DNA of 62,728 nt, the filler included, from Diploschistes diacapsis (Eukaryota): assembly GCA_023645945.1 (NCBI GenBank). It is 24 parts of 24 records of this genome, joined end to end, with 100 filler letters (N's around TTAATTAATTAA, not from the genome) between each part and the next. Parts side by side here need not be neighbours in the genome. Positions count along the whole stretch, not along the records: positions 1,751 to 24,388 come from JALAIB010000277.1; 23 more parts are not named here. One strand, given 5' to 3'. The notes beneath the pieces are model-generated. The model did not search any database and was not told the DNA's origin. It was given only the letters and a program-made list of their open reading frames with translations. The position numbers were made by a program, and so were the translations under genes. Positions 1,751-12,651 of this stretch are shown here, piece by piece. The stretch's first letter is position 1. Each line of letters opens with the position of its first letter.

Positions 1751-2526
1751 GGATCTACGTGGTCTCAACACCACATTTTTAGTATATACGCGTATATAGA
1801 GCTTCAAATTCAGTACATTTCTACTAAAAACCTTGCAAATTGTAAAGTAACTTAAATTTCTATGTAAATTGCTAATAAATCTATGTACCTCGGCAATCGC
1901 AATCGCGGCGGTTAAGCCAGATTACCACTAAAATTGTTTACTAGCGGCTCCACAAGGCAGAATAACACAAGCCCTTTTTCCAACTACTTCGTACAGGCCT
2001 TGACCACAGCAATAATTTCTCCAATCGAGCACACCCTTAGGCCCTCAGGCTGTGGGTACTGGAAAGGCTGATAGCTTGCGCGACTATGCGGCATTGACTC
2101 AGCTGGCTTAGGACATGCGTAAAAAAGGGAAAACCTCCGCGGGTGCTTTAACACCCCATTGTCCGCGTTGAAATGATTGGTTTGTGGCACATTGCTCTTT
2201 GTTCTGACTATAGTGACTGCAGCATCTGCAATGCAACCGCAATGGCGTCTTCACGCTGCATTTCGTAGGAATACATCCTCGGTACAGCGAAGATAAACCT
2301 AGTACGATAGAAGGACGACAGGCCTATCTTTCTAGCATCCTGACATATGATATTTACTGTCACGTGTTGCTATTACCATGACTTCCAGGCTCCATGGCTA
2401 AACTGAAATTTCACTATATCTACTGTCTCTTGGAATAAGCTAAGCTTTAGGATCAAAACACTGTGGACTTTGCGTATTTCCTTATAATATTAGAGAACCG
2501 CTAGCATATCCTGTTTCGATCTGAGA

Positions 2527-4118
2527 ATGGCTAATCAAGCAGACTCTCCGAAAAATAGTCACAGAGCGCTTCCCAATCCTAGTACAGACCCCGAGACTAT
2601 GTCAAGCAACGACCACAACAAGACACAAGTATTTGACCGAACAGTTGCCGATTTTGACGGCGAGGACGATCCAGAGAATCCTTTCAACTGGAACAAGAGA
2701 TACCGCTGGTCCCTTGTTATCTTGCTTTCTCTCATGACAACCCTTGTGTAAGCCTCCTTTATGCTTGTTACCAGCGAAATGGCTTCTGAAGAACCGAAGA
2801 ACACTGGCCACGGTGATATGTGCTCCGGCAGCACCACAGATACTGCAAGAGTTTGAGTCTACAAATTCTTACGACTCCATTCTGCTTGTCTCAATCTGGG
2901 AGCTCGGAGAGGTCTTCGGTCCGCTTCTCATGGCTCCTCTGTCGGAACTCTACGGCCGCTTGTGGACCTGGCATATTACTTGTGGACTTTTCGTTATCTG
3001 CTCAGCTGGGACTGCACTGAGCACCAGCTTGAACATGGTCATAGCGTTCCGCTTCCTGGATGGCGTTTTCACTCCAATGGTCTTGAGCGCAGCAATGACA
3101 AGCGATGTTTTCCGGCGCGAAGAGAGAGGCCGAGGTATGGCCGTCGCGAGCTTCGCTCCTCTCTTCGGCCCAACCTTCGGCCCTACTGTTGGAGGCTATC
3201 TAGCTTTAAAAGCTGGCTGGCGGTGGACGGCATGGGTTATCACCATTGCAGCCGCCGTGATTGAGGTCGTACTATTATTCTTCTTGCGGGAGACTGGGGC
3301 TTGCAAGATATTAAAAGACAAGGCCCGAAAACTTCGGAAACAGACTGGCCGGGATGATATCAGATCAGTATATGAACTTGATATCAAGCCCAGAAATCTC
3401 TTTATGCGGTCTATGTTTCGACCTTTACGATATTTGCTTTTCTCGCCCATTGTCGCGCTGATGTCGCTATATACAGGCGTAATCTATGGATATATGTATT
3501 TAGTTCTCACAACGATGACCAATGTTCTTGAACAGACCTATGGCTTCTCGGCGGGCAGTGCAGGTCTATCTTTCATTGCCATGGGTCAGTCACTCCGATA
3601 TTCATATACAAACGCTGACAGCTTGTTTAGGGCTCGGGTTAACATGTGGAGCCTTGGTCTGTTTCTTCTTACTGGATCGGGTAGTGAAAAGTCAAGCCTC
3701 GAAAAGTGAGCCGCTGCCACCAGAGAGTCGACTTCCATTCCTGTTTATAGGTAGTTTTGTCACGCCTGCAGGACTCTTCCTTTACGGCTGGGCCACACAC
3801 AACGCGATTCACTGGATTGCACCGCTCGTTGGAACCTTCCTAATTGGACTCGGACAACTGGTTACGAATACACCGATCCGCACTTACTTAGCTGATGTGT
3901 TCTTGGAATACGCGGCCTCTGCTATTGCGGCAAACATCTTTTTTCGGACTATTACAGGTGCTCTATTACCACTTGTTGCACCTCCACTATACGACAATCT
4001 TGGGCTTGGGTGGGGCAATTCTCTTTTAGGATTCATCGCCTTAGCACTAATACCTCTGCCGCTTGTGTTCATGAAGTACGGAGCGCGTCTACGAGCGAGG
4101 TTTCCTATGAAAGACTAG
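2527..4118 (+). CDS. MFS transporter, DHA1 (drug:H+ antiporter) family, spliced
   Basis: DFDGEDDPENPFNW motif, motif A APLSELYGR, DVFRREERGRG, GPTVGGYL and PPESRLP, with many hydrophobic segments over three ORF pieces separated by GT-AG introns. Confidence 0.92.
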
Positions 4119-9584: not shown

Positions 9585-10036
9585 ATGACACCCTTCGCCT
9601 TCAAAGCTCTCGCCCTTGCGGCGACGCTCCTCTGTGTCGTGGTCGCGGTGCCGATAACACCACGTAAGACACCGACATTCTCTTTTTTTTTTTAAGGGGG
9701 GGGGGGGGGCCAAAATGAAGCGATGTCTCGCGATGGCGAAGGAGCTAATTCGAACCTTTGAAAGCACTTGCACAAGATCTCGCCAGGAAATCCGCGGGTA
9801 GTTACACGCCCAATGCCCTGTACCAGTACGACCCAACCAAAGCCAAAGTCACGGACGAGGTAGAGGTGAGAGAGGTGGACAGCACTTGGGAGCCACAGGG
9901 CATGTATCGGTACGAGGACGGGAAGGCGGTGAAAGTGGTGGATAAAGTTGAGGCTAGGCAAGCAAGTACCACCTGGACACCACCGGGCATGTTAAGATAC
10001 CAGGAGGGGAAGGAAGAGGCTCAAGATCAAGCCTAA
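9585..10036 (+). CDS. Secreted repeat-peptide precursor (candidate dikaritin/fungal RiPP precursor), 116 aa, join(9585..9663,9765..10036)
   Basis: Exon 1 encodes signal peptide MTPFAFKALALAATLLCVVVAVP. The intron GTAAGA...GCTAAT...AAG splices in phase with ORF 9758-10036. Three 28-29 aa repeats have cores YTPNALYQY, WEPQGMYRY and WTPPGMLRY. The gene lies about 370 bp upstream of a DUF3328 gene. Confidence 0.85.
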
Positions 10037-10403: not shown

Positions 10404-11619
10404 ATGGGCCATCGCTATACTTCTCTTTCGCCAGACTCCGAAGGCCCCATCGTCAAAGGCCCCCCCCCTCTTTTTAAATCTGGCAATATCCCTTTCCGCC
10501 TGATCTTCGAATTAGTCGTTGTCTTGCTCTGTCTCTTTCTGCTCCTCCGATCCCAATGGGAGCCCTCATGCGTTGAGAAATGGTCAATCTACTGTATGCC
10601 GCTTTTTTCCGTTTCCCCTGTAACATCTTCCACCGCGAGAAAAGAGGATACGAGAGCTGACCGCCCCTGTAATGTTGTGTTTTTGCAGCGCCGATCCTCC
10701 CCGTCGTGACCAAGCCGCCCCAGACGATCAAGTTCAATGGTTCATTCGCGCCGAGCGCGTATATGGGCCCGCCGAGCACGGAAGTAGATAGGGCATGGGC
10801 GGAGCTTACGGAGCGTAAGTCCCTGTTCTTTTCCTATCTTGCTCTGTCTGTCTTTCTCTGTCCTCGACACAAGTACTCGAAAGGCGGAAACGCCACGGCG
10901 GAAGAGAGAATGTACCCTGAAAGCTTGCCTGCTTTCGTCGTGAGGTGCAAAAGACTGATACTGTTTGTTGAGATCGCAGGCGGCGCCTTCCGTATTTCAG
11001 CGGAGGATATGGTGCGTATCGGCGAGCCGCTCACTGCCGCGCAGTGGCCGGCCAAGTACGGCGGCGGGTATGTGGGGTATGTCGAGGTGTTGCATCAGTT
11101 GCATTGCTTGGTATAAAACTATCCCATTGCTTCTTTGGAGGGCTTCTGAGTGCTGGAGCTCGAGTAGGGGTGATAGTCGAAGTGATATTTGCTGATTCCG
11201 GGCATGATCCTAGAGGTTCCTCTGGCAGCATCTGTATCCGGAGTATTATATGAACAGGACGAGCTCGTGGGGCGATTCGGACGAGTGGCGGCTGGAGCAT
11301 GCTAGTAAGTGCATCATTAGGCTTCTGATGTGGAAGGGTTTCGAGCTTGTGCGAGAATCTCTCGATGCTGATAACGCCGAATATAGATCACTGCGCGGAT
11401 CTGCTGCGCCAGAAGATCATGTGTGACGCCGACGTCGGTCTGATCCCGCAGCTCTGGATCCGCGACCGATCCATTCCGTGGCCTGTTTTCTCCACGGTGC
11501 ACCAGTGTCGAGATTTCGACGCCGTACTGGACTGGGTGGACGAGCATCAGGTGAGGGTTCCGGAGGGTTTCGACCTTGTAAAGCCTAAAGACGCGTACGA
11601 GCTGCCGAGTCCTCCATAA
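10404..11619 (+). CDS. DUF3328/UstYa-family oxidase, join(10404..10593,10689..10814,10980..11110,11214..11304,11387..11619)
   Basis: N-terminal TM helix, YSP, GPPSTEVDRAW, two HxxHC motifs (VLHQLHCL; EHANHCADLLRQKIMCDAD) and HQCRDFDAVLDW. All four introns are GT-AG and in phase. Confidence 0.95.
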
Positions 11620-11745: not shown

Positions 11746-12651
11746 TCATACGGTAGGAAATTTTTCGTCGGCCCTCTTTGGTCGCCAGAGCCATTCCACC
11801 TCAAGCGGGTAGTTCTCTTCCAGATGTTTCCACTCTTCATTGCCTTCGTGCTCTTTGGGCCGCTTCACGATGCAGTGCTCGACATGCTGGAACCCGAACT
11901 GTCGGTAGACATGACTGCCAAAAAATGAAGCTTCCACGAAAGCCTCGATGCCCAGTTCGTCTGCCCGCTGGACGCCCCACTGTACCAACATCTTTGCAAC
12001 ACCACGCCGCCGATAAGCTGCACAGACGCCCAGAGTTCCGAGCCCTGCGCATGATCAGTAGCCGTTCCACATGTTGCGAATTGACGCGGTGTCAACAGGT
12101 AGAGGCAGAGTCGAGAAAACGTAACCAACTTACAGGCGTTTGGTTCCCGACATCTCTGCGCTTGCCGTACAAGACGGTCGTTCATCAAGAACGAGGTGTA
12201 TTCGCGGATAAGGGAGCCTTCAGGGTACCATTTGGCCTCAACACGCGGCGGCCCGTTGGGAAAGGGCGCTTCCGGATAGAACACCCACCTCGAAATGCTT
12301 GCGTACAAGTAAGCATTCATGATCATTCAGTGTATAGAAACAATGTGGCAATAGTTCAAATCATATACAAAATCCTATTCGAATGTCGACGAACTAGTTG
12401 AGATGCAAAACTTACCCAATGATCCGATCGGTATCGGTGTCCACCACGTTCATCCATTGCTCATTAGGATCTGCATCCCAGCGTTCCTGCCAGTTGCGTA
12501 TTGCATAAGGTTTGCCCTTTGGGTCATTGGTACCTGCACCGGGCAGCATCAGGTCGCAGTATGGATGCCGAGGGTGGCTGTAGGCATCAAATAGACAGTC
12601 CACGATCTGGGAAATGTCGGCTCTCTCGCCAGCCCTAAGCTGCAAAGGCAT
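11746..12651 (-). CDS. GNAT-family N-acetyltransferase, two introns
   Basis: The spliced product gives WLGTLGVCAAYRRRGVAKMLVQWGVQRADELGIEAFVEASFFGSHVYRQFGF (acetyl-CoA motif A, RRRGVA, plus motif B) and an N-terminal VVDTDTDRIIG. Confidence 0.9.

Follow-up and report, generated by a model that had tools for sequence, protein, structure and literature searches.

A small gene with three sequence repeats lies next to a DUF3328/UstYa oxidase gene in the genome of Diploschistes diacapsis. The question raised by this locus is whether the repeat protein is the source of RiPPs and, if so, to which residue of each repeat the oxidase would join the terminal tyrosine. The window, that is, the whole stretch of 62,728 nucleotides analysed, consists of contigs joined with N runs, and the locus lies on the fungal contig at 1751-24388. 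The other parts (1-1750 and 24389-62728) consist for the most part of AT-rich (27-39% GC) short contigs of ~1.7 kb, which are unrelated to the locus; one short contig at 49347-50167 carries a five-codon tandem repeat, with several frames open on either strand.

The preliminary description had placed the precursor at 9767-10036. The repeats were found there, but this interval corresponds only to exon 2, and the gene starts at the ATG at 9585. Translation across one phase-1 intron gave a protein of 116 aa, to which the sequence of the public model P0007 is identical; the source of P0007 assigns it to a lichen-forming fungus. The gene has the following features:

9585..9663, plus strand: exon 1, predicted signal peptide and first pro residues, with a hydrophobic stretch at residues 10-22
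9664-9764, plus strand: phase-1 intron, GT..AG, with a branch-like GCTAAT, in agreement with P0007
9765..10036, plus strand: exon 2, with the three repeats and the stop codon (translation)
9803..9829, plus strand: core 1, YTPNALYQY, residues 40-48, Tyr-initiated (translation)
9887..9913, plus strand: core 2, WEPQGMYRY, residues 68-76, Trp-initiated (translation)
9974..10000, plus strand: core 3, WTPPGMLRY, residues 97-105, Trp-initiated, with Leu at position 7 (translation)

The mean hydropathy of residues 10-22 was 2.86; judged by this value, the N-terminus would be a signal peptide, with cleavage predicted after Ala21. The intron contains a run of 12 T followed by ~14 G (9684-9709), which is harmless to the frame.

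All three gap-free nine-residue cores were obtained by translation exactly where they had been described, and each of the three units had Arg at -6, Pro3, Tyr9 and Lys at +4. The units are spaced by 28 and 29 aa. Pairwise scores of the 19-residue units were 32, 30 and 66 (identities of 5/19, 5/19 and 10/19), and in a shuffle control (n=300) the best pair had a mean of 16 and a maximum of 39, a score of 30 or 32 being reached in 2 of 300 shuffles and a score of 66 in none. The repeats are beyond chance. Two copies of the motif, which was defined after the sequence was seen, occurred in 0 of 100,000 shuffles. The DNA identities among the 69-nt stretches were 31/69, 28/69 and 44/69, so unit 1 is the most diverged.

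The oxidase gene starts 367 bp downstream of the precursor on the same strand and is followed by a convergent gene:

10404..11619, plus strand: DUF3328/UstYa copper oxidase gene, five exons, 256 aa (PF11807, E 1.2e-20)
11746..12651, minus strand: GNAT acetyltransferase gene (PF00583, 26.1 bits, cut-off 20.7)

The oxidase exons lie at 10404-10593, 10689-10814, 10980-11110, 11214-11304 and 11387-11619. The protein has a membrane helix at 29-47 and two intact HxxHC motifs, HQLHC at 144 and HANHC at 178, and thus shares the architecture of CctR (PF11807, two HxxHC, one membrane helix; PMC12435403). DUF3328 enzymes act in organelle lumens as dimeric oxidases that are anchored in the membrane and depend on Cu and O2 (PMC12435403), and activity outside RiPP pathways is also described for them (PMC12048977). 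The two PF11807 matches on the locus contig are exons of one gene, so there is a single oxidase. One 241-nt contig from run X1, a run of uncertain kind, joins exon 4 to exon 5 with the modelled intron 4 skipped (depth 6.1; three differences from the window, two of them silent), and this single contig gives weak support for the splicing of the oxidase gene in a close relative. Run X1 had no coverage of the precursor.

Genes for a fungal rhodopsin-domain protein, an amino-acid permease and an MFS transporter lie upstream of the pair; those beyond the GNAT gene encode an actin-family protein, a cytidylyltransferase-family protein and an SPB4-like helicase. The GNAT gene may be a member of the cluster; it had no match in the three most closely related loci discussed below (L032, L034 and L035). 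None of the 18 tyrosinase matches was on the locus contig, and a general scan of the window frames revealed no methyltransferase; no kexin gene was present among the frames scanned. The amino-acid permease was rejected as a common cluster gene, since a search with the L032 permease gave 24 own-genome matches, among which the window copy was only 4th.

The arrangement of a UstYa gene with a repeat precursor is common in this genome. There were 46 UstYa matches over 27 contigs, and repeat-precursor-like frames were present on 9 of the 25 UstYa contigs examined, the locus contig counted and four seen only with 1.5-kb flanks; at least nine such pairs thus exist. None of the other UstYa-linked repeat precursors has the grammar of the window gene. 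Eight of them (L020, L027, L030, L065, L075, L076, L078 and L079) all have different cores, and L075 has Trp-Trp-Pro cores with a GNAT-like frame nearby. Near another UstYa match (L077, contig C4240, ~2490-3120), a long array of five-residue units RD-V/M/L-A-A/S was observed, which may be a precursor or a low-complexity repeat.

Direct searches with the precursor yielded little. In its own genome, and in a word-indexed search with 1 candidate, only the precursor itself was found, and phmmer against 1.84 billion representatives returned it with five weak matches (E 2e-4 to 9e-4). Among these, four were discarded: an ABC transporter fragment together with other kinds of repeat protein. The fifth, P0002, strikingly similar to unit 2 (47% over 44 residues), is a tandem-repeat frame that occurs as a singleton and lacks a signal peptide; the likeness was treated as chance. 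In the ESM Atlas, exon 2 had no usable match, and the matches of P0007 were all under 0.9. Because no direct homologue was found, relatives were sought via the oxidase. Its last exon as a query gave four relatives at 52-64% and 32 metagenome loci; precursor-like repeats were present at 14 of these loci, and no precursor was found at the other 18, many of which are on short contigs.

A tree was built from 30 partial sequences, BLAST-projected onto the window protein, which represented 21 of the 32 loci, four own-genome paralogues, four proteins and the window itself; 10 distant paralogues and near-duplicates had been excluded. The window enzyme was grouped with P0008-P0010, of which P0008 and P0009 are the nearest to it, and with the enzymes of L032, L034 and L035 with a support of 96.7/96, the first, query-anchored tree having left the position of the window without resolution (support 55). 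The enzymes of these three loci are 50-53% identical to the window oxidase, and beside each of them lies a divergently transcribed precursor that repeats T-Y-[STG]-G-[VI]-F-L-N-R-Y-E-E:

L032:3664-4056, minus strand: family precursor, head-to-head with UstYa
L034:2260-2583, minus strand: family precursor, head-to-head with UstYa
L035:4897-5160, minus strand: family precursor, head-to-head with UstYa

A profile search added 13 proteins with T-Y-x-G-V-[FY]-L-N-R-Y (P0020-P0032), five of them named from lichen-forming genera; these are known as proteins, and the link to an oxidase was seen at L032, L034 and L035 only. With enzymes in the same clade, this family comprises the closest actual relatives of the window precursor. 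Both have nine-residue cores and a phase-1 intron after the signal peptide (after codon 27 in L032 and L034, compared with codon 26 in the window). In contrast to the window gene, the family has near-identical repeats, KR sites, X-Ala spacers, Gly at 3, Asn at 7 and never Trp, and its precursors are divergent from the oxidase gene instead of in tandem with it. The D. diacapsis genome contained no member of the family (one match, E 1.84).

No relevant paper was found for the core motifs of the window, the family and the sister clade in a search outside which most subscription literature lies. The motifs had 0 matches in three supplements of PMC7329392, where the repeat sequences may not be listed, and 0 in four supplements of PMC12048977. 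The T-Y-x-G-V-[FY]-L-N-R-Y family is apparently undescribed.

Several further features were noted at the related loci. Downstream of the family precursor, L034 (212-1962, minus strand) and L035 (2651-4305, minus strand) have a long gene that matches ATP-grasp only weakly (E 0.014-0.055, below the cut-off); possibly it encodes a tailoring ligase, and it is absent at the window locus. Sister-clade UstYa loci (L038-L040, L044-L046, L048, L056-L058 and L063) have other repeat precursors ending in [RK]-Tyr-[TNSE][DA]D, one type of which carries Cys residues. Judged by eye, flavin monooxygenase-like frames are present at several sister-clade loci and an S53-peptidase-like frame at L036/L037.

Conservation was counted over 37 family units from 15 sequences (17 distinct 11-mers; P0028, a piece of the L035 contig, was excluded). 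The units were anchored on [RK]Y[EQD], which fixes positions 8, 9 and +1 by construction, and since the members are closely related, the counts are not independent events. Tyr was present at position 1 in 37 of 37 units, eight residues before Tyr9 and without indels. High counts were also obtained for Thr at -1 (34/37), Gly at 3 (36/37), Val at 4 (35/37), Leu at 6 (36/37) and Asn at 7 (35/37). Arg occurred at -6 in none of the units, and Lys at +4 in one.

Therefore, only part of the grammar proposed earlier generalizes. The end aromatics and their eight-residue spacing, taken in that description to mark cross-link positions, are kept across the precursors of relatives, and the lack of aromatic conservation that would speak against the proposal was not seen. 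In contrast, Pro3, [YL]7, Arg-6 and Lys+4 are not kept and are private to the window gene. Other features that had been missed are common to the window and the family: Ser/Thr at -1 (Thr in the family), Leu/Met at 6 (Leu in the family), Arg at 8 (two of the three window units) and an acidic or Gln follower, in addition to aromatic 1 and Tyr9. Nothing is common at positions 2-5 or 7. Scored against the family, each window unit fell within the best 1-2% of a background of 672 Tyr-anchored 11-mers (p 0.010-0.019); the joint p of 3e-4 for the three units assumes an independence that repeats lack. The pattern [ST]-[YW]-x4-[LM]-x-[RKQ]-Y-[DEQ], drawn after the sets were compared, matched all three window units and 1 of the 672 background 11-mers. 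From its enzyme clade and this common pattern, the window gene is assigned to the family.

In the sister clade, 16 units from seven of eight loci, anchored on the Tyr end, had Ile, Val or Phe at position 6 in every case, so that this position, with Leu, Met and Met in the window, is hydrophobic throughout; an aromatic residue eight positions before Tyr was found in only one of the 16. Therefore, the Tyr end is the common ancestral feature: together with the acidic follower it is old, whereas the aromatic residue at position 1 belongs to a narrower clade.

The release of the units from the precursor was also considered. Three candidate processing sites were recognized:

9785..9790, plus strand: Arg34-Lys35, the only dibasic pair in the precursor, candidate site of unit 1 (from the sequence; cleavage predicted)
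9860..9871, plus strand: VEVR, monobasic candidate site ahead of unit 2 (from the sequence and Kex2 preference; cleavage predicted)
9947..9958, plus strand: VEAR, monobasic candidate site ahead of unit 3 (from the sequence; in register with EKR of L065; cleavage predicted)

Kex2 favours Arg at P1 and an aliphatic residue at P4 and tolerates variation at P2 (PMC8528282). At the unit-1 site, P4 is Asp, and the Val and Ala at P2 of VEVR and VEAR are absent from the preferred alternatives listed in the available text of that source (PMC8528282).

The lack of dibasic sites between the window units would be expected if the small repeat protein were secreted without being processed, or if it were a precursor under relaxed selection with little or no product. 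The units are also far more divergent than those of the relatives, and the searches gave no direct homologue. However, the reading frames of both the precursor and the oxidase genes are open and uninterrupted, and the mature part of the precursor contains no Cys and no Pfam domain. Moreover, VEAR, which also occurs in L063, is in register with the EKR of the own-genome precursor L065, and a monobasic Arg precedes the first units of relatives in 8 of 10 cases. An intact or decaying protein was therefore judged the least probable of the explanations considered, with only a slight chance of being right.

In the family, 21 of 22 KR-led spacers of the KR-(X-Ala)n type are even, and 74 of 98 dipeptides end in Ala or Pro; these spacers resemble alpha-factor-type processing. 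The idea that even spacers place the mature N-terminus at Ser/Thr -1 fitted these 21 spacers and all three window units but was set aside, since the spacers of the first units of relatives are odd in 9 of 10 cases. The alpha-factor-like spacers could point to secreted peptides that are linear, or only hydroxylated or acetylated, with an oxidase that makes no cross-link or has another substrate. It is known that some DUF3328 members hydroxylate and halogenate (PMC12435403), and a GNAT gene is adjacent. Nevertheless, the precursor grammar follows the enzyme tree, Cys and a pheromone-like core are absent, and according to the available text of PMC7329392, pheromone precursors are almost never near DUF3328 genes, with three exceptions. 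Linear products thus seem rather improbable.

The claim that the gene encodes a repeat precursor for the adjacent DUF3328 enzyme gained support from the signal stretch, the significant repeats, the adjacency of the genes and the pairing of kin enzymes with similar precursors. A small secreted three-repeat protein and its adjacent copper enzyme probably represent a known fungal cyclic-peptide route in varied form. As to the partner of Tyr9, it is proposed, with about an even chance of being correct, that the precursor is a dikaritin-type RiPP source in which the oxidase cross-links Tyr9 with residue 6 or residue 7. The precursor would enter the ER through its signal peptide, and the oxidase would recognize each unit by its [RQ]-Tyr-acidic follower end. 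The phenol oxygen of Tyr9 would form a bond with the beta-carbon of the second or third residue upstream, giving a 14-membered ring with Tyr/Leu7 or a 17-membered ring with Leu/Met6. A Kex2-like protease would cut after the Arg of each unit, exopeptidases would trim the spacer and follower, and up to three different cyclic peptides of ~9-10 residues would be secreted. Aromatic 1 would mark the N-terminal end, where a second link may or may not exist.

This proposal is favoured because the sister clade lacks aromatic 1, position 6 is hydrophobic and precedents for short rings are commoner. Asperipin-2a has Tyr-to-beta-carbon ethers formed with one AprY (PMC6514808), victorin has a C-terminal Phe linked to an internal Leu (PMC9233826), 14- and 17-membered Tyr-O-Leu rings are described in plant peptides (PMC11253845), and most of the dikaritin rings described in PMC6514808 and PMC9233826 span 3-4 residues. 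The preliminary description had named residues 7 and 1 as possible partners; residue 6 is as good a candidate as residue 7. A point against the short ring is the Asn at position 7 in the closest family, an acceptor for which no precedent was found; therefore, an i-2 ring could not be uniform across the clade. Furthermore, a short ring alone does not account for an invariant Tyr1 at a constant distance from Tyr9.

For this spacing, and owing to the epichloecyclin precedent, in which one DUF3328 enzyme acts on a nonapeptide and Tyr is joined to residue 1 (PMC10540207), the main rival is the same pathway with Tyr9 linked to residue 1 through its beta-carbon, ring or N-terminal amine. The ring would contain about nine residues, and either Tyr or Trp would be accepted at position 1; a beta-carbon acceptor would take both by the same chemistry. 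Such a link would be consistent with the Tyr of all family units and the Tyr, Trp and Trp of the window at a constant distance from Tyr9, with positions 2-5 and 7 swapped between the lineages. However, the family core is near-invariant at positions 3, 4 and 6 as well, so Tyr1 is not singled out, and both the sister clade and the usual size of dikaritin rings argue against it. A link to residue 1 is accordingly regarded as unlikely, although worth serious consideration. In its fullest form, in which one DUF3328 enzyme makes nine-residue Tyr9-to-1 rings with Tyr and Trp interchangeable, release is monobasic and the gene is an offshoot of a lichen RiPP family, this reading is doubtful to a greater degree; if it were true, one gene would give one Tyr-Tyr and two Trp-Tyr macrocycles.

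The endings YQY and YRY of units 1 and 2 could also indicate that the product is only the C-terminal Tyr-x-Tyr tripeptide, closed by a diaryl ether like that of OF4949; the remainder of the unit would then serve for recognition, with unit 3 inactive or differently linked. OF4949 is a tripeptide with a Tyr-Tyr C-O link, and its pathway reportedly includes a copper oxidase (PMC13185096, PMC13703928). However, with Leu7 in unit 3 and Asn7 in the closest family, this core is present in 2 of 3 window units and 0 of 37 family units, and the conservation of positions -1, 1 and 6 would be left unexplained. A tripeptide product was thus considered very improbable.

Among known systems, the locus is provisionally a dikaritin by the DUF3328 definition, the ether of the product aside: it has an oxidase of PF11807 with two HxxHC motifs, as given in PMC12048977, and nearby a repeat precursor with a signal peptide, as judged by hydropathy. 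The KEP definition (Umemura 2020), of at least three repeats between KR, KK, RK or RR as described in PMC7329392, does not cover a precursor with one RK only. Nor does the five-gene dikaritin definition of the ustiloxin/phomopsin type apply, a tyrosinase and multiple DUF3328 genes being absent from the locus contig. Like the window gene, victorin, ustiloxin and phomopsin loci combine a repeat precursor with DUF3328, but they have several oxidases, a tyrosinase, other tailoring genes and short cores.

The asperipin-2a locus (aprA/aprY) is similar in its signal peptide and repeats, single DUF3328, lack of a tyrosinase in the available description and C-terminal Tyr in the core, but differs in the hexapeptide FYYTGY, which is absent here, in dibasic sites and in the reductase and transporter of its cluster (PMC6514808); the window has unlike nine-residue cores, monobasic sites and a GNAT neighbour. 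Closer in core size are the epichloecyclins (gigA/gigB), with nonapeptide cores, imperfect repeats, several congeners per gene, one DUF3328, a conserved Tyr and a follower peptide (PMC10540207, PMC9233826). Their LxKR sites, dimethylated core Lys, SET methyltransferase, kexin and Ile/Pro at residue 1 (PMC10540207, PMC9233826) were not seen at the window locus, whose precursor has no core Lys and no KR. The novelty claimed for nine-residue cores and three congeners per gene is lost to this precedent, in which nonapeptides from imperfect repeats with a Tyr-to-residue-1 link are already described (PMC10540207). OF4949, known here from citing passages (PMC13185096, PMC13703928), shares the YxY ending and aryl coupling by a copper oxidase, a reaction already reported for DUF3328, but is a tripeptide. 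Lichen RiPP Clan R2, compared by its description, likewise has a single ustY homologue and GNAT neighbours in lichen fungi, but no repeat precursor is reported for it in the available text of PMC12048977.

The asperigimycins, compared by title, are fungal RiPPs with a benzofuranoindoline. Their Trp-Tyr link is said to be built by several DUF3328 oxidases, and the compounds are reportedly heptacyclic; the window has a single oxidase. Overall, no new class is opened, as precedents exist for the route, for the enzyme family and for most individual features. What is unusual is the Tyr/Trp exchange at position 1, the monobasic sites and the apparently undescribed lichen precursor family.

The available text of PMC12048977 reports no characterised RiPP from Lecanoromycetes as of 2025 and no repeat precursor in two conserved lichen clans. 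Because the window precursor does not pass the dibasic-site filter of the large KEP survey (PMC7329392, as far as its available text describes it), such precursors are probably under-counted. The two-gene precursor-oxidase pair and its related family, known from five or more named lichen genera, are directly expressible. The three unlike cores offer one copper oxidase a natural set of substrates, with Tyr or Trp at position 1 and Tyr or Leu at position 7, and this set would reveal how DUF3328 enzymes choose the partner residue.
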